Part shown: in pieces, positions 1 through 48,770 of the stretch
How the letters are laid out: the number at the start of each line of letters is the position of its first letter
How positions within the stretch are numbered: the stretch's first letter is position 1
Origin: Candidatus Saccharimonadota bacterium
GTDB lineage: Bacteria > Patescibacteriota > Saccharimonadia > Saccharimonadales > SZUA-47
Direction of reading: 5' to 3'
Assembly: GCA_016700315.1 (NCBI GenBank)
Contig: CP065013.1
Location: forward strand, 774,727 to 838,726
Length of the DNA: 64,000 nucleotides
Program-made: the position numbers and the translations under genes
Notes under the pieces: generated by a model
What the model saw: only the letters and a program-made list of their open reading frames with translations
Told to the model about the DNA's origin: nothing
The model's database searches: none

Positions 1-489
1 GAATACATCGTAAAGTCACTAGTTGGTAATCCTGACGCAGTCAAGCTAGTGCGGACCATTGACGAAAAAGGTGTGCTCTTGGAACTCACTGTTGATCCTG
101 AGGATCTCGGCCGTGTTATCGGTAAAAGAGGGGCAACTGCTCAGAGCCTAAGGACATTGTTGCGGGCATTGGGTACAAAAAACGAGGCTCGCTACAACCT
201 GAAGATTGTTGACAACGGTGAGCCAAGACCAGAGCGAGCGTCTCGTGATGAAAGCAGATATTCTGCAAGCAACGACTCTTCTTCTAGCTACGGATCAGAC
301 GATTCAACCAGTAGTGACGATTCGGTGACAAGCGTCTCTGATGACTCATCGAATGATACCATTAATAAAGCGAGCGATGATGCTTGGGGTATGCCAGAAC
401 CAAGTTCTGATAAAGATGAAGCAGATCACGAATCGGTTATGTCCAAGACCCGCAAAGAGCTAGAAGATCTCGACGACCTCGATATCTGA
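1..489 (+). CDS. khpA: KH-domain RNA-binding protein (KhpA/YlqC-like), 5' partial, with long acidic Ser/Asp-rich C-terminal tail
   Basis: Frame 1 is open from window start; VGRVIGKRGATAQSLR KH-type motif; classic position upstream of trmD. Confidence 0.6.
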   Translation, partial: EYIVKSLVGNPDAVKLVRTIDEKGVLLELTVDPEDLGRVIGKRGATAQSLRTLLRALGTKNEARYNLKIVDNGEPRPERASRDESRYSASNDSSSSYGSDDSTSSDDSVTSVSDDSSNDTINKASDDAWGMPEPSSDKDEADHESVMSKTRKELEDLDDLDI

Positions 490-916
490 GCAACATGCCA
501 GCCGGCCTTCTTTGGGGCGCAGTCCCAAACTCTGCCGACTTCTCTGGCTATCGAACGCTTTTTTACTGTGTTGCTCACTCGCCGTATATTAAATACGTCT
601 TGTTGCGTTACTCGCTAAAAACCGTACGCTAGCTCAGAGCATGTTACTCAGATGCTAATGTGGTTTGAAGCCCATATCTACTTCATTAATCCTTAATCGT
701 CAATCGTTATTCAGCGCCGAAGACGTATAAAGCGCTTGTGCTAGTGTTCGTGGTCTGTTAGGATATTTATTACGTCCGTTAAAAACAAAAGCGGCAACAA
801 AAACAAAAACAATTCAAAGCTCATTGCGAGCCATCGGGTTCAATAAGTAAGCCAGATGGGGGCTTTATGTGATTAAATGACTGTCGAACTGGCGGTCATT
901 TAAGTTAGGGCGAGAA

Positions 917-1357
917 TTACCTTACAAGAGTCAAGTGTCTAGCCCGGGAGGTACGTCGTACTGCCTTGATCTCGGGAGTGCCATTCCAATGGTTACTAAT
1001 TTCTTTACCCGCATCTATTGCTTTAGAAAGAATGCTCCAGATCACCTCGTCGTATGGCAGCTCTAGTACAGGCTGGCAATACTGCTCGCTGTGGTACTTA
1101 GTCATAACCATCTCAGCTAGCAGTCTGCGGCTAATAGTAGCGGCGGTATCTTGTTCATTATCATTATTTACAGCAAATAAGTGAGGATATCTTTTTTTTA
1201 GAAATTGATTACTATTCGTTTTATAAACATCAATCGCTAGGTTGAGCTTTATTGTAAAAGCCCTCGGATTTGGTTCATCAGACATATTTAGGCCATCGTT
1301 AGCTAAAAGTGCTTCCTGGGGACTAAATTTTATCTTCTCTTTATCTCGCAACATCAC
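917..1357 (-). CDS. hypothetical protein (sits where rimM is usually found between khpA and trmD, but antisense)
   Basis: 146-aa ORF, no recognisable motif. Confidence 0.35.
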   Translation of the reverse strand: MMLRDKEKIKFSPQEALLANDGLNMSDEPNPRAFTIKLNLAIDVYKTNSNQFLKKRYPHLFAVNNDNEQDTAATISRRLLAEMVMTKYHSEQYCQPVLELPYDEVIWSILSKAIDAGKEISNHWNGTPEIKAVRRTSRARHLTLVR

Positions 1358-1368
1358 AATATGTTATA

Positions 1369-2016
1369 ATGAAACTAATGAAAATACAAGTAATAACATT
1401 ATTCCCGCAGATGTTTGAGGGTGTTTTGGGTCAAAGTATGATGTGGAAGGCTCAAGACAAAGCTAAAGTCGAATTTGAGCTGATAGATCTGAGGCAATTT
1501 GGGTTGGGTCCCCGTCGGCAAGTTGATGATACTCCGTACGGTGGCGGTGACGGCATGCTTCTGATGATCGAGCCGCTGGTTAGAGCTATAGAATTTGCTA
1601 AAGTTAACTCGCCATCGGCCAAAGTAATTTTGCCTACGCCTCGCGGCAAAACCTACAAGCAATCGGACGCCAAGAGGCTAGCAGCAGCATCAAATGATCT
1701 GATAATCGTTTGCCCACGCTACGAAGGCTATGATGAGCGGGTTACTAATTGGGTAGACGAGCAGTTTTGCGTCGGTAATTACGTTCTAACTGGCGGCGAA
1801 TTGCCGGCTATGGTAATTATCGATTCAGTTGTCAGACTCCTGCCAGGTGTGTTGGGCGGCGAAAAAAGTGTTGAGATAGAGTCCTTTCAGGAGGACGATA
1901 AAAAGATCGAGTTTCCCCAGTACACCAGACCCGAAAAGTTCAGGGGCCAAAATGTGCCCAAGGTGCTATTAAACGGGCATCACGCAGAAATTGAAAAGTG
2001 GCGAGCCGAAAACTAA
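1369..2016 (+). CDS. trmD: tRNA (guanine37-N1)-methyltransferase TrmD
   Basis: VITLFPQMFEG, YGGGDGMLLMIEP, VLTGGELPAMVIIDSVVRLLPGVLG SPOUT-knot motifs. Confidence 0.9.
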   Translation: MKLMKIQVITLFPQMFEGVLGQSMMWKAQDKAKVEFELIDLRQFGLGPRRQVDDTPYGGGDGMLLMIEPLVRAIEFAKVNSPSAKVILPTPRGKTYKQSDAKRLAAASNDLIIVCPRYEGYDERVTNWVDEQFCVGNYVLTGGELPAMVIIDSVVRLLPGVLGGEKSVEIESFQEDDKKIEFPQYTRPEKFRGQNVPKVLLNGHHAEIEKWRAEN

Positions 2017-2087
2017 CATTAAACTTGCATGATCTGCATGTAAAGCGTATAATCACGTTTAATAAGTAGTGTATCGGAGGAGATATA

Positions 2088-3113
2088 ATGGGACGTGCTA
2101 GAGCTATAGGTTTAACAGTAGGATTATTTGGTGCTGGAGTTGGTGGGTCGTTGCTAAAAGGGGGAGAGGTTAGCGCACACGTGCCTTTAGTTACTCCGAC
2201 CTGTGACTCTCTGGATATCGATCTATCAAGGTATGAGGATAATGGTACGGGCCAAAACAACATTATCAGAGTTGTTGTAGATGGTACTCTAGTTACGAAC
2301 TCATTATTCGGCAGCAGATATGTCAAATCTATAGAGCTGAATCCCGCACAGAAACATGACTATGAGGTCACAGTAGACGCCAACAGGTTGATTGGCGATC
2401 CTGTAAAATGGGATTTTTCAACTAGCGGTACCACTGAGAAGTGCGTGTCTCCAACCGACCCCACAGAAAGTACCGAAGCTTCAACGACTACATCCACCAC
2501 CGAAGCTCCAACTACGACTACATCTACCACTGAAGCTCCAACTACGACTACATCTACCACTGAAGCTCCAACTACGACTACGTCGACAACTGAAGCCCCA
2601 ACTACGACTACATCTACCACTGAAGCTCCAACTACGACTACGTCGACAACTGAAGCCCCAACTACGACTACTACATCTACCACTGAAGCTCCAACTACGA
2701 CTACATCCACCACTGAGGCTCCTACAACTACCACAACCACCGAAGCTCCAACTACGACTACATCTACCACTGAGGCTCCTACAACTACCACAACCACCGA
2801 AGCTCCAACAACGACTACATCCACCACTGAAGCTCCAACAACGACTACATCCACCACTGAGGCTCCTACAACCACCTCAACCACTGAAGCTCCAACAACG
2901 ACAACTACCGAAGCCCCAACAACGACTTCAGCCACAGAAGCTCCAACAACCACAACAACTTCTGATGTTGTGCACACTACAACCACTGTTAGCGACAGAG
3001 AGACTCCAGGCACCGGTTCAGAACCAGGCGGCGTAGTATTATGGGCCAGTATAATTACTGGTTCAGGGTTAGCGATCTACGGTGCATCGCGTATTAGGAA
3101 AAGGACTGTCTAG
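2088..3113 (+). CDS. Thr-rich mucin-like surface protein with C-terminal hydrophobic anchor plus basic tail
   Basis: About 13 tandem STTEAPTTTTS repeats; C-terminus TPGTGSEPGGVVLWASIITGSGLAIYGASRIRKRTV resembles a cell-wall sorting signal. Confidence 0.7.
   Translation: MGRARAIGLTVGLFGAGVGGSLLKGGEVSAHVPLVTPTCDSLDIDLSRYEDNGTGQNNIIRVVVDGTLVTNSLFGSRYVKSIELNPAQKHDYEVTVDANRLIGDPVKWDFSTSGTTEKCVSPTDPTESTEASTTTSTTEAPTTTTSTTEAPTTTTSTTEAPTTTTSTTEAPTTTTSTTEAPTTTTSTTEAPTTTTTSTTEAPTTTTSTTEAPTTTTTTEAPTTTTSTTEAPTTTTTTEAPTTTTSTTEAPTTTTSTTEAPTTTSTTEAPTTTTTEAPTTTSATEAPTTTTTSDVVHTTTTVSDRETPGTGSEPGGVVLWASIITGSGLAIYGASRIRKRTV
2470..2960. repeat. 33-nt tandem repeat array (about 13-14 copies) encoding TEAPTTTTSTT units
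   Basis: Near-identical repeats accgaagctccaactacgactacatctaccact directly visible. Confidence 0.85.
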
Positions 3114-3718
3114 CTCTTCTTCGGCCTAATCAGCAGCCATAGTACTTCTGCTAAAATCAGGAAGAATACACAGTAAAACCCTACTTCTATGGCAAGCTCT
3201 GCTTTGTAGCCTTCGTTGAAATGCGTATGGAAGTACCACCAAGCGCTAAGTATATATAAGGCAATCGTGCATAGGGTGGTGACAAGTATTGAAAACTTTT
3301 TTAGCAGCAGTGAAGAAACCACAATCGGCAGAGTAAACAATATTACGGCTCTACTCGACATACCGCGCTGAGTGTAAATACTGAAAGTTGCGAGAGCTAG
3401 ATCGGCAGTTATTAGAGCCCAGATAACTCTCCTATGATGGCCGTGATCTCTGTTTGGTTTTGAAGAGTAAAACCAGGCTAAAATGTAGACGCTGGTTACG
3501 ACAAAAAGCGCTAGCCAACGCTGTTTGGCAGCGAAAGGTGTGATTAGATTCCAGGCATCAGAGAGGACGATGTAGACTGCATAAATTAATGCTAGAACTA
3601 TGTGTAGTTTAGCCGCAGGTCTTGAAACAGATTCTAGCCAATGATCGAGTTTTTTTTCGATGACTTTTTGTTTTTTCATTAACCTAATAAGTAAAGCATA
3701 AAACAAGATCCTGCGCAA
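3110..3718 (-). CDS. polytopic membrane protein, unknown function
   Basis: 202-aa ORF with 5-6 hydrophobic helices. Confidence 0.55.
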   Translation of the reverse strand: MRRILFYALLIRLMKKQKVIEKKLDHWLESVSRPAAKLHIVLALIYAVYIVLSDAWNLITPFAAKQRWLALFVVTSVYILAWFYSSKPNRDHGHHRRVIWALITADLALATFSIYTQRGMSSRAVILFTLPIVVSSLLLKKFSILVTTLCTIALYILSAWWYFHTHFNEGYKAELAIEVGFYCVFFLILAEVLWLLIRPKKS

Positions 3719-3753
3719 AAAAGTTCACAGGATCTTGATTGTTATCGTAATTT

Positions 3754-3927
3754 TTAGGCTTCTACGATTTCGGCATCGGCGGAAGCTCGTGCAACAGCCT
3801 CACAGCCTCGCTTGGCACCTGCTTTGTCGGCGTATTCTTCGCCTGTAGCAACTACTTCGCCATTACCGGCTTTTAGACGCCAACGGTAACCGTTTTTACT
3901 TTCATAAATCTCAAATTTTGCTGCCAT
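3754..3927 (-). CDS. YegP/DUF1508 (UPF0339) small protein
   Basis: 57-aa ORF not in track: MAAKFEIYESKNGYRWRLKAGNGEVVATGEEYADKAGAKRGCEAVARASADAEIVEA; FEIY-x-GY-RWRL-A-NGE core typical of YegP. Confidence 0.55.
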   Translation of the reverse strand: MAAKFEIYESKNGYRWRLKAGNGEVVATGEEYADKAGAKRGCEAVARASADAEIVEA

Positions 3928-4051
3928 GTTTAAGTAACCTCCTTAATTTAGTATCTTCATTTTACTCTCTCCGTGGCCTATCGGTCTACGGAAAATGGCT
4001 ATTGTTGACATTAAGACTATAATAAAAGCATAAGACTAAAGGAGAAAAACA

Positions 4052-4576
4052 ATGAAAAAAATAAAACTTATGAGCGCTGCCTTCTGCCTAATAGCCGCAA
4101 GCTTGCTCATGCTAGGGAGTAATTATGCATCCCTCACCGTAAAGGATCAGCTTTCAGCCCAAAAAATATCATTTCCAGATAAGGCAACGTTAGAAAAAGA
4201 CAACTCCAAGCTGGTCTCTTTTGCCGACAAAGCTGTAGATACGGGTGATGAAGCGAAAGCTTATTCGGATTACATCAAAGGCCACTTGGCAAAAGTTGCC
4301 AATGGCAAAACCTATTCGGAGGTAAGCGGCGAGTTTCAAAAAGATCGAACCAACAAAACCCTAGAGGCCCAGAGAACTAATCTTTTCATGGGCGAGACGT
4401 TACGCGGTTTACTACTCAACGCGTGGGGTTGGGGCTTAGTTGGAAAAATTGCTCTATGGGCCTCGTATGCAGTGTTCATAGTTTCGGTTGGACTGTTAGT
4501 GTGGGCAGTAGCCGACAGTGGTACTCGTAAATCGCTGCCAGCCCATACGGTTGCAAAACGAAAAGCCAAAAAGTAG
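4052..4576 (+). CDS. secreted/lipoprotein-like hypothetical protein with C-terminal TM helix
   Basis: N-terminal MKKIKLMSAAFCLIAASLLMLGSNYAS signal-like segment; C-terminal hydrophobic stretch plus KRKAKK. Confidence 0.5.
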   Translation: MKKIKLMSAAFCLIAASLLMLGSNYASLTVKDQLSAQKISFPDKATLEKDNSKLVSFADKAVDTGDEAKAYSDYIKGHLAKVANGKTYSEVSGEFQKDRTNKTLEAQRTNLFMGETLRGLLLNAWGWGLVGKIALWASYAVFIVSVGLLVWAVADSGTRKSLPAHTVAKRKAKK

Positions 4577-28178: not shown

Positions 28179-28186
28179 GCTTAAGC

Positions 28187-28308
28187 AGGAATTACGCGTT
28201 TAGTGCACTTTCGGATGAAAATCGAGTGCCGCAAGCCGAGCCGTACTTAACGTACGGTGAGCGCGGAACGGAGATTTTCGCCAAAAAGGTGCAACGCGTG
28301 ATTCCTGT
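28187..28308 (+). repeat. 122-nt element with 13-bp terminal inverted repeat (copy 1); candidate structured ncRNA or MITE
   Basis: CAGGAATTACGCG...CGCGTGATTCCTG termini, internal CCGTAC-TTAAC-GTACGG hairpin; second copy at 47934-48056. Confidence 0.6.
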
Positions 28309-28991
28309 TAAGCTTGGAGCGTCTCAATCTCGGCTAAAGTCATGTGTAAGTTGCGTTCTTGGTAGGGAAGTAGTACTTTGGCTTCTTCGGTGTACCAATT
28401 GTGGGTCGAATAAAATACGACCTGGTTCTGCAAAAACACTAATCGATTCTCTGGTCCTGGCTGTTCGCCCTTCAGAGACTCTGAGTAAAGCCGATCACTG
28501 CGAACTTTTGACTCCTCGGGCGGCAGGCCGGCGGCCGACACGTCGGCATCACACATTAGCTGCCCAAGATAATCTTCGCCGGCTGACTGCCAGAAACCGT
28601 GTTGATTTACGCCGCAGACGGTCGCCATAATAATATTTTCTACTCGGGAGACTAATGGCTTTTTAAAGACGTCGGGTGTTTGCTTGATCATCCACTTGGC
28701 GATTTTTTTAGCACTTTGCTGCTCATTCACACCATTCCCAGTCATACCATGAACGAGGTCGTGCCCGGCAGCCGCAATTTGCAAGATAGCTAGCTCAGTA
28801 GGGCTAATTTTGCCCTTGGTCATGGCTAGTTCTCCAAGTGAACTAGCGGCCGCAACAACATCAAGTGTGTGTAGGTGGTTATGGTAGGGAAGCGGCAATC
28901 GGCCGAATTCGCCATAAACCCTACGAGTGTAAGCATAGGAATGAGCTATCAATAGCTCACTGGCTTTATCTAATTTATTTGACCTTTTCAT
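28308..28991 (-). CDS. HD-domain phosphohydrolase
   Basis: H..HxLHTLDV and HDLVH metal-binding motifs. Confidence 0.7.
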   Translation of the reverse strand: MKRSNKLDKASELLIAHSYAYTRRVYGEFGRLPLPYHNHLHTLDVVAAASSLGELAMTKGKISPTELAILQIAAAGHDLVHGMTGNGVNEQQSAKKIAKWMIKQTPDVFKKPLVSRVENIIMATVCGVNQHGFWQSAGEDYLGQLMCDADVSAAGLPPEESKVRSDRLYSESLKGEQPGPENRLVFLQNQVVFYSTHNWYTEEAKVLLPYQERNLHMTLAEIETLQA

Positions 28992-41509: not shown

Positions 41510-42465
41510 CTTTTTTGACTTTTAAAGTAGGCCAGTAGAACTGGTGCACCAAGCTTGTTAGCGAATTCTCGGTGTTGCTTGGCCGTCTTGATGTCGGCAA
41601 TTCTCCCTCTTACATAGGCGAGTCTTTCGGCGCGGCCTTTTGCGCGTAGGTCAGAGGTTCTTCTGATTGATTTGAGGGAAATTGGTGTGCCGCCAGCTTC
41701 GGTTCTCTCCGCTACGGCGATTATAGAGGACTCGATGGGAAGGATAAGCCAATCTATATACTTACCGCTATTTAAGTTTTTAAGCACAGTTTCCCATATA
41801 CCCAGTTTCTGACACAATAACTTCTTTAGCTTTATTGATTCCGGAGCGTAGCTAATCGCCGAGGCAAACGAGTTAACAAGTTTAGCTCCATCAATTCCAA
41901 GAGCCTTAAAGTTCTCCATCTTCTCTGCCACTGATTCCGGAGCGTAGCTAATCGCCGAGGCAAACGAGTTAACAAGTTTAGCTCCATCAATTCCAAGAGC
42001 CTTAAAGTTCTCCATCTTCTCTGCCACTGATTCCGGTGCGTAACTAATCGCAGAAGCAAACGAGTTAACAAGTTTAGGAATATTAATACTGTATTGATTA
42101 TAGGTTCTAAAGGTTGCAAGCACTGTAGCGAGAGGCATAAGGGTATGTTTTTGATTCTCGAAGTTTGTTCTGCCGTTTGGGGCCTCAATGCCTTCTGGCG
42201 TATAGGGCATGTCAGTCAAGTCAAAAAAGTTTCTGCGTGCCAAAAGTGCTTGAGAGTAGTCTACTGGTTTGTGTGTAAGGTGTTCGACGTCGCTTCCTAG
42301 TAGCTCATTGAGCTGAATAAGCACACCAACGTCTGGTTCAATGCCACAGTTTATTAGCCAGCCAGCATCTAGCTCAGCTGAGACACTCTGGGCGCGTTCA
42401 AAAGCTGCTGCCGATGTGGGTGGCATATCAAATCGCTTGAGTTCGGGGGATACAACTACTGACAT
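41506..42465 (-). CDS. hypothetical protein with three 32-aa internal repeats
   Basis: SVAEKMENFKALGIDGAKLVNSFASAISYAPE repeated about three times. Confidence 0.5.
   Translation of the reverse strand: MSVVVSPELKRFDMPPTSAAAFERAQSVSAELDAGWLINCGIEPDVGVLIQLNELLGSDVEHLTHKPVDYSQALLARRNFFDLTDMPYTPEGIEAPNGRTNFENQKHTLMPLATVLATFRTYNQYSINIPKLVNSFASAISYAPESVAEKMENFKALGIDGAKLVNSFASAISYAPESVAEKMENFKALGIDGAKLVNSFASAISYAPESIKLKKLLCQKLGIWETVLKNLNSGKYIDWLILPIESSIIAVAERTEAGGTPISLKSIRRTSDLRAKGRAERLAYVRGRIADIKTAKQHREFANKLGAPVLLAYFKSQKS
41839..42080. repeat. 96-nt tandem repeat (about 2.5 copies) inside the CDS
   Basis: ttccggagcgtagctaatcgccgaggcaaacgagttaacaag... recurs at 41839, 41935 and 42031. Confidence 0.8.
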
Positions 42466-47915: not shown

Positions 47916-47933
47916 TCTGTCGCCAATCACTAT

Positions 47934-48056
47934 CAGGAATTACGTGTTTAGTGCATTTTCGGATGAAAATCGAGTACCGAAAGCCGAGCCGTACTTAACG
48001 TACGGTGAGCGCGGAACGGAGATTTGCGCCAAAAAGGTGCAAGCGCGTAATTCCTG
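47934..48056 (+). repeat. 123-nt element, copy 2 of the 28187-28308 element
   Basis: About 92% identical to copy 1 in the same orientation; terminal stem maintained with a G-U instead of a mismatch. Confidence 0.6.
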
Positions 48057-48057
48057 A

Positions 48058-48770
48058 CTATTTTATGAAGGAGTTTTCGATGCGTGTTTTATTGTGTTCA
48101 TATTGTTCGTTGATTATTTTTCGGGCGTAGTTTAGGTCGTTCGTAATATGGTAGAGCTTACGATCTCCTTTGCTGATTAAACCATTCTTGAGCATATGAC
48201 GCTTGATGTAGCGATCGAGCGGGTTCCAGAATTTCTTACCAACTAGGATTATTGGAACCGGCGCCATTTTGCCAGTTTGGATTATTGTTATAACCTCAAA
48301 AAACTCGTCGAATGTGCCAAAACCCCCAGGAAAAAAATGAAACCATGTGAATAGAAAGTCATCATAACTTTACGAGTGAAAAAGTAGTTAAAGGCGAGGC
48401 TGCTGGTAGTGTAAGGGTTGAGGTGTTGTTCTTTAGGCAATACTATGTTAAATCCAATCGAGACATGCTGCTCATCGAACGCGCCGCGGTTGCTCGCTTC
48501 CATGACGCCACCACCACCGCCAGAAACTATAGCAAAGCCGTCTTGTGCTAGCATGGCAGCTAAATCGTGGGCTTCGCGGTAAGCTTTGAATCTGTTGGAA
48601 ATTCTTGCTGACCCGAAAAAAGTTACTCGCTTTGGGTATTTTTTTAAGATCTTGAAGGCTTCTTCGAATTCTTCGTCACTTGTACGTAGCTTGCGTGATG
48701 ATTTCTGGATACTGGCAATCTGCTCGGCGCTCATTTTCCATACTTTATCTTCGTGTGTGTGTTTGTGCAT
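48058..48770 (-). pseudogene. LOG-family (cytokinin riboside 5'-monophosphate phosphoribohydrolase-like, TIGR00730) gene frameshifted at an A7/T7 homopolymer (48330-48336)
   Basis: Upstream ORF ends ...FNYFFTRKVMM; alternative frame after the T7 run gives FFPGGFGTFDEFFEVITIIQTGKMAPVPIILVGKKFW, the canonical LOG motif. Confidence 0.65.

Follow-up and report, generated by a model that had tools for sequence, protein, structure and literature searches.

A 122-nt intergenic repeat in a Saccharibacteria genome is very probably a MITE with ISPlag1/ISAba11-type ends

Two copies of a palindromic repeat in the window

The window, that is, the whole 64,000-nt stretch of DNA analysed here, contains two copies of a short intergenic repeat in the same orientation (Table 1). 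Copy 1 is bordered by an mgtC-like gene on the minus strand and by the stop codon of an HD-domain-like gene that encodes 227 aa on the same strand (28308-28991), and copy 2 is bordered by a convergent pair consisting of a gene for a 411-aa protein (plus strand) and a LOG-family gene (minus strand). The two copies are 94.3% identical over 123 columns (BLAST E = 1e-49), which replaces the figure of about 92% given in an earlier note on this DNA, and their similarity is bounded exactly by CAGG... and ...CCTG. The same note had placed copy 1 one base off, at 28187-28308, and had located copy 2 correctly; its description of two intergenic copies with 13-bp terminal inverted repeats is borne out.

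Table 1. Positions in the window of the two element copies, which are very probably MITEs, and of their terminal and target-site repeats
Feature	Position	Strand	Sequence or context
Copy 1 of the probable MITE, 122 nt	28186-28307	+	intergenic
Copy 1, left terminal inverted repeat	28186-28198	+	CAGGAATTACGCG
Copy 1, right terminal inverted repeat	28295-28307	-	CAGGAATCACGCG on the - strand
Copy 1, left target-site duplication	28181-28185		TTAAG
Copy 1, right target-site duplication	28308-28312		TTAAG; holds the TAA stop codon (-) of the 227-aa gene
Copy 2 of the probable MITE, 123 nt	47934-48056	+	intergenic
Copy 2, left terminal inverted repeat	47934-47946	+	CAGGAATTACGTG
Copy 2, right terminal inverted repeat	48044-48056	-	CAGGAATTACGCG on the - strand
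Copy 2, left target-site duplication	47929-47933		ACTAT
Copy 2, right target-site duplication	48057-48061		ACTAT; holds the TAG stop codon (-) of the LOG-family gene

The 13-nt arms read CAGGAATTACG(C/T)G at the 5' end and CGCGT(A/G)ATTCCTG at the 3' end, and the terminal helix of each window copy comprises 12 Watson-Crick pairs and one G·T pair on the plus strand; both substitutions in the helix arms give G·T on that strand, as had been claimed. The whole element is a single long imperfect palindrome that folds as one long imperfect hairpin, and with its 122-123 nt it has no transposase coding capacity. Perfect 5-bp direct repeats flank both copies, and their sequence differs between copy 1 and copy 2.

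Frame 2 of the plus strand is open across the entire element (28187-28306; RNYAFSALSDENRVPQAEPYLTYGERGTEIFAKKVQRVIP). A gene could in principle tolerate the element as an in-frame insertion, for which Rickettsia palindromic elements are a precedent. No case of in-frame insertion of the present element into a gene was found, and the concatenated open frames of the element had no match in a collection of 5.8 billion proteins, which thus yielded no ORF called across other copies.

Further copies and insertion sites in related strains

The search for other copies combined a one-genome-per-species scan for the two element ends, a look-up of the flanking proteins and a metagenome scan for the 5' end. 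An identically flanked orthologue of copy 1 was found in a Candidatus Saccharibacteria MAG (L009), further orthologues of copy 1 are present at loci L010, L011 and L027, and copy 2 has an orthologue in strain L015. Both window insertions are present in all the close strains sampled, and a polymorphic empty site was not found among them.

The metagenome scan revealed two new sites, one with TAATA on both sides (L025) and the other flanked by TCCGC and TCTGC, which match at 4/5 positions (L026). Duplications of 5 bp therefore accompany the element at four independent sites, three being perfect (TTAAG, ACTAT and TAATA) and one 4/5 (TCCGC/TCTGC), and the joint probability of such a set arising by chance is estimated at about 1e-11. 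The assemblies behave accordingly for a dispersed repeat, with at least 12 independent short-read contigs breaking off 16-42 nt into the element. In addition, contig L036 joins the left flank of copy 2 through the element to a foreign right flank, which implies a fifth site and is explained either by recombination or by an assembly chimera through the repeat. The tally thus stands at two copies within the 64 kb of the window, two additional sites on related contigs and the hybrid fifth flank of L036.

Contig L036 (JGI 3300045388, Ga0490039_006367, 1-4208) carries phage-like genes, namely DUF5675 and the N-terminal part of a large terminase, in an in-frame fusion with the final 70 codons of the 411-aa gene; the element comes next, and then the unrelated right flank. 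The junction could be a prophage junction, the product of recombination between element copies or an assembly chimera. A protein that joins the terminase domain to 70 residues of the 411-aa protein (P0018) was considered as a mobile-element lead and was discarded, since it derives from this hybrid contig, joined at or near the element.

The scan for the 5' end found nothing in viral contigs, and blastn of a plasmid collection with the element gave no match, as was also the case for the elements at two cyanobacterial loci (L007 and L001). Degenerate copies were likewise not detected in the window or in the loci of a syntenic relative (nhmmer, filters off). Four matches from the genome scan (L003, L004, L006 and L008) were rejected as chance matches, of which about eight were expected from database size by our estimate, because they are not palindromic beyond the search pattern; two of them, L004 and L006, are nearly the same match found twice, in two genomes of Mesobacillus.

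Comparisons between strains give 93-97% identity for the element and mostly 96-99.9% for its flanks. In most comparisons it therefore diverges at least as fast as the coding sequences around it and is not unusually conserved. The divergence of the element does not run parallel to that of its flanks: at L027 the element is identical to copy 1 and the flanks are only 97.8% identical, and at L009 the flanks are 98.2-99.7% identical to the copy 1 locus and the element only 93.5%, some of its variant bases being those of copy 2. Such mismatches between element and flank divergence (L027, L011 and L009) suggest that copies have undergone gene conversion or that the assembly confused one repeat with another.

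Empty sites in a syntenic relative

The element is missing from both window sites in a syntenic relative (L028 and L031) whose flanking proteins are 55-58% identical to those of the window, and this distant relative is the source of the known empty sites. The spacers measure 30 and 19 nt in the relative and 130 and 142 nt in the window, and the first empty spacer holds a single TTAAGCAT that matches the sequence beside copy 1. No copy of the element was found in about 60 kb of the relative. The earlier note had offered a MITE as the alternative to a structured RNA, and this alternative gains from the target-site duplications at every copy and from the empty syntenic sites. Taken together, the fixed-length duplications, the inverted ends, the dispersion and the empty sites indicate that the 122-nt repeats are, with high confidence, copies of a MITE.

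The comparison with the relative also bears on the gene downstream of copy 1. In L028 the mgtC-like gene begins at the equivalent of the second ATG of the window ORF (28148-28146, minus strand, MEF...) and not at that of the first (28178), and the second ATG is probably the true start. An extended -10-like motif, TGCTATAAT (28164-28156, minus strand), lies 7 nt upstream of this second ATG, a position that suggests a very short mgtC leader. The idea that copy 1 disrupts the translational coupling of two genes 2 nt apart was abandoned, because the comparison with L028 puts the element in a spacer of about 35 nt. Copy 1 lies between the upstream stop codon and the -10-like motif, so that its insertion need not disturb expression.

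The hairpin and selection on RNA structure

The earlier note had read the two wobble-preserving changes in the helix arms as a sign of selection on RNA structure. Two such changes out of two have a chance expectation of 25%, and the genes around copy 1 are transcribed from the minus strand, on which the same changes give C·A mismatches. A structured noncoding RNA family expressed from the plus strand, its long hairpin kept by RNA-level selection, would be in line with the plus strand folds of copies 1 and 2 (-62.3 and -52.2 kcal/mol; z = -8.8 and -6.6). The minus strand folds reach -53.5 and -40.9 kcal/mol, and the z-scores over both strands range from -4.9 to -8.8; the plus strand fold is the more stable in six of seven copies, but L025 folds better on the minus strand, and z-scores of this size arise from any long inverted repeat.

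An alignment of seven distinct full-length sequences from four sites, with a hairpin of 47 pairs, was used to look for selection on pairing. On the plus strand the outer 22 pairs can form in every copy (100% pairable), but none of the 47 pairs was altered on both sides, and the covariation score of the seven sequences equalled that of 500/500 shuffles. Non-pairing cells occur in eight pairs of the alignment. The internal hairpin CCGTAC-TTAAC-GTACGG, described earlier as conserved, is indeed present in both window copies, but in other strains it is mutated without compensation: it is weakened by one A·C mismatch in L015 and destroyed in L026 (CCGTAC TTAAC CTGTGT). The further copies thus combine uncompensated mismatches with target-site duplications.

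Other lines of evidence also argue against an RNA family. A scan of Rfam 15 gave no match at the gathering thresholds for the whole window or, around copy 1, even at E <= 10, and neither promoter-like nor terminator-like motifs were found in the element. Its orientation relative to the neighbouring genes is inconsistent, since copy 1 and L025 are antisense to co-directional genes, L026 has the sense orientation and copy 2 is flanked by genes that converge on it.

One point still speaks for the RNA reading, and it concerns the wobble pairs. Among the transitions at paired positions in the seven copies, nine give G·U on the plus strand and three on the minus strand, and a partial copy (L035) adds a tenth plus strand case, which brings the ratio to 10 versus 3 (one-sided binomial, 0.073 for 9/12 and 0.046 for 10/13). 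The polymorphisms of the terminal helix are all of the plus strand G·U type, and in the consensus palindrome the bias is only 4 versus 2. A purely DNA-level element would not be predicted to show more G·U than A·C on the plus strand. However, the GC skew of the plus strand around the copies is positive (+0.086 to +0.10), and with such a skew C-to-T and A-to-G changes would be expected to be over-represented there even without selection, so that the marginal G·U excess is explained equally well by local base composition. With no compensatory change, a covariation score at the level of shuffled alignments, uncompensated mismatches, no Rfam match, and duplications and empty sites that show transposition, selection on RNA structure as proposed in the earlier note is not sustained, and a structured RNA family as the origin of the repeat is highly improbable.

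A MITE might also have been co-opted secondarily as a cis-acting RNA hairpin, for instance as a 3'-end stabiliser, a processing site or a terminator-like barrier. ERIC, Correia and REP elements have been reported to act as cis-acting RNA hairpins in neighbouring transcripts. Here, both copies directly follow stop codons that lie inside the duplications and would thus fall in 3' untranslated or intercistronic regions, their hairpins are very stable on both strands, and both insertions are kept in all sampled strains. A neutral insertion for which no mechanism of excision exists would nevertheless be retained in the same way. The hairpin is not followed by a U-tract on either strand, the orientation is not consistent, the stems decay without compensation, and in most strain comparisons the element diverges at least as fast as its coding flanks (see above). 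We therefore regard such a role as unlikely. In a MITE the hairpin simply follows from the inverted-repeat architecture, and any effect on neighbouring transcripts would be secondary.

The element ends resemble those of ISPlag1 and ISAba11

The tip of the element, CAGGAATTACGCG, fits (C/T)AGGACTTACGCA, the terminus of ISPlag1, ISAba11 and their relatives in cyanobacteria and proteobacteria. It agrees at 13/13 positions with one end of an element from Nostoc (L007), at 12-13/13 with the AATT variants of cyanobacteria, at 11/13 with the ISPlag1 end CAGGACTTACGCA and at 10/13 with the ISAba11 end TAGGACTTACGCA. The literature search with the terminal sequence returned nothing relevant except through the ACTT variant of the tip, which led to ISPlag1.

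ISPlag1 of Planktothrix agardhii is a 1,306-bp element with a 337-aa transposase of the IS701 group and a published inverted repeat of the CAGGACTTACGCA type, and 197-bp remnants of it have been reported (PMC2464740); its classification as IS701 has been given elsewhere (PMC9366434). In our searches the transposase scored 408 bits on the IS701-family model NF049921 of NCBIfam (cutoff 250), and it also matched Pfam DDE_5 and DDE_Tnp_1. Of the full-length copies recovered, one has a perfect 5-bp duplication (ACAGT) and two have none. Like the element in the window, ISPlag1 has short non-autonomous derivatives with the same ends, comprising the 197-bp remnants and forms of 428 and 812 bp found here. 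These plainly arose from ISPlag1 by deletion, whereas no parent was found for the interior of the window element, and ISPlag1 differs further in its 29-bp inverted repeats, its subterminal sequence and its coding capacity.

Several full-length ISPlag1 copies lack matching duplications, which is consistent with ISPlag1-mediated rearrangements (PMC2464740). Two Planktothrix plasmids (L040, 2478-2928, and L043, 37124-37574) carry nested or tandem ISPlag1 derivatives in which an extra terminal repeat lies 23 nt outside another.

Transposases at increasing distance from that of ISPlag1 belong to insertion sequences with comparable ends. An element of Paraburkholderia (58% transposase identity) shows a 5-bp duplication, ACCTC; one of Acinetobacter baumannii (47%) shows a 4-bp duplication, AGGT; and ISAba11 (30%) shows, in the copy examined, the 5-bp duplication CATAT at an AT-rich target. 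All three have TAGGACTTACGCA ends. ISAba11, an IS701 element of A. baumannii, resembles the window element in tip and footprint but measures 1,101 bp, encodes its own DDE transposase and belongs to a different host phylum, whereas the window element is 122 nt long and non-coding; nothing beyond the tip is held in common. To judge from these sequences, the tip and the 5-bp footprint are conserved across this branch of IS701 in distant phyla.

Closer counterparts in size are found in filamentous cyanobacteria. Four matches from the genome scan, in Oscillatoriaceae, Kamptonema, Calothrix and Nostoc, are elements of 114-131 nt with perfect inverted ends (CAGGAATTACGC), and an AT-rich 5-bp duplication is perfect in Kamptonema (CTATA) and 4/5 in two of the others. 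Two of the four matched plasmid elements of Brasilonema and Nostoc whose ends are of the CAGGACTTACGCA type and whose duplications, TTATT and ATTAT, are perfect. The 90% identity over 50 nt between L002 and L037 indicates that the AATT and ACTT variants of the tip belong together. Considered as a set (L001, L002, L005, L007, L037 and L038), these MITE-like elements with CAGGA(A/C)TTACGC ends share with the Saccharibacteria element a small size (93-131 nt), a tip identical at 12-13/13 positions, an intergenic location and AT-rich 5-bp duplications, but they differ from it in host phylum and their interiors are unrelated.

The terminal sequence and the 5-bp footprint together point to the ISAba11/ISPlag1 group of IS701 as the probable source of the mobilising transposase, a putative enzyme that may be present in this genome. 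Searches of the window and of the related Saccharibacteria loci with the ISPlag1 transposase (tblastn, E <= 1) found no transposase of this type, and no full-length insertion sequence with CAGGAATTACGCG-type ends was present in the window or in the related loci that were fetched. Past the 13-nt tip, neither ISPlag1 nor ISAba11 shows any similarity to the element, and no direct parent was found.

A long hairpin-forming palindrome could in principle also be a REP/RAYT- or IS200/IS605-type element that moves through single-stranded DNA hairpins by means of an HUH transposase, and G·T pairs would add to the stability of a hairpin in single-stranded DNA as well. To our knowledge, elements mobilised by HUH enzymes create no target-site duplications. 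The 5-bp duplication at every copy contradicts this mode of movement and the ends match those of DDE-type IS701-family elements, so that an HUH-type origin is almost certainly wrong.

Origin and significance of the repeat

The best explanation overall, to which we assign a probability of about 0.8, is that the repeat is a MITE mobilised by a DDE transposase, most likely, though with more moderate confidence, one of the IS701 family (ISAba11/ISPlag1 group). The transposase, supplied in trans, would bind the 13-bp terminal inverted repeats, and insertion would take place at a 5-bp staggered cut whose repair would leave the 5-bp direct repeat. Most of the observed insertion targets are AT-rich. 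Both insertions in the window are old: every strain sampled has them in fixed form, and the copies have diverged from each other by 5-8%, which suggests an old family. Both sit just past stop codons, and their positions are harmless. The documented insertion sites number only four or five.

The element is of an ordinary kind and calls for no new mechanism. Correia/NEMIS of Neisseria, ERIC/IRU of enterobacteria and RUP of pneumococcus are similarly intergenic elements of 100-160 nt with terminal inverted repeats that form long hairpins when transcribed and are mobilised in trans, but they differ in terminal sequence, in the length of the duplication and in the parent IS family. The Correia duplication, for example, is TA. 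Regulatory effects have been documented for some of these classical elements.

The genomes of Saccharibacteria (TM7) are small and streamlined. The present element is apparently the first MITE described in this group, and the literature search found no paper naming both Saccharibacteria and MITEs. With it, the host range of the ISAba11/ISPlag1-type terminus now covers Cyanobacteria, Beta- and Gammaproteobacteria and Saccharibacteria. The repeat also accounts for breaks of metagenomic assemblies of this lineage at the positions of the element, and it offers a marker by which strains can be typed and recombination or assembly chimeras of the L036 kind recognised.

Two bolder scenarios, a takeover of the MITE by the host as a strand-specific structured RNA and a recent cross-phylum transfer of an ISPlag1-like transposon, are very unlikely. 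If the former were true, the plus strand wobble excess would reflect real selection on a plus strand transcript, which at copy 1 would be antisense to the mgtC operon; if the latter were true, the transfer would be recorded by the identical tip in Saccharibacteria and filamentous cyanobacteria.

Other features of the window

Next to copy 2, the LOG-family gene (48058-48770, minus strand; lysine decarboxylase-like, PF03641) is split into ORFs of 69 and 160 aa. In strain L015 the gene is intact (266 aa), and its DNA alignment with the window has a single 1-nt gap; either a frameshift in the window or an error in its sequencing accounts for the split. Between this gene and uvrB, the segment 49009-49260 contains dense heptanucleotide arrays in which CTACTAA occurs about 11 times, together with heptamers of the GGTACGG and GGTCCCT types in an 80-nt higher-order repeat. 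The same segment in strain L015 is 82% identical, with gaps, compared with 96-99% for its flanks, and it may be a variable-number repeat.

Two further tandem repeats lie elsewhere in the window. At 2412-2957 a 30-nt unit with the consensus ACGACTACATCTACCACTGAAGCTCCAACT is present in about 14 copies; if translated, it would yield a Thr/Ser/Pro-rich 10-residue repeat typical of surface-protein linkers. At 41836-42123 a 96-nt unit is present three times, first in two identical copies and then in one that is 67% identical, and it may constitute a 32-residue repeat in a putative gene; the perfect identity of the first two units suggests a very recent duplication.
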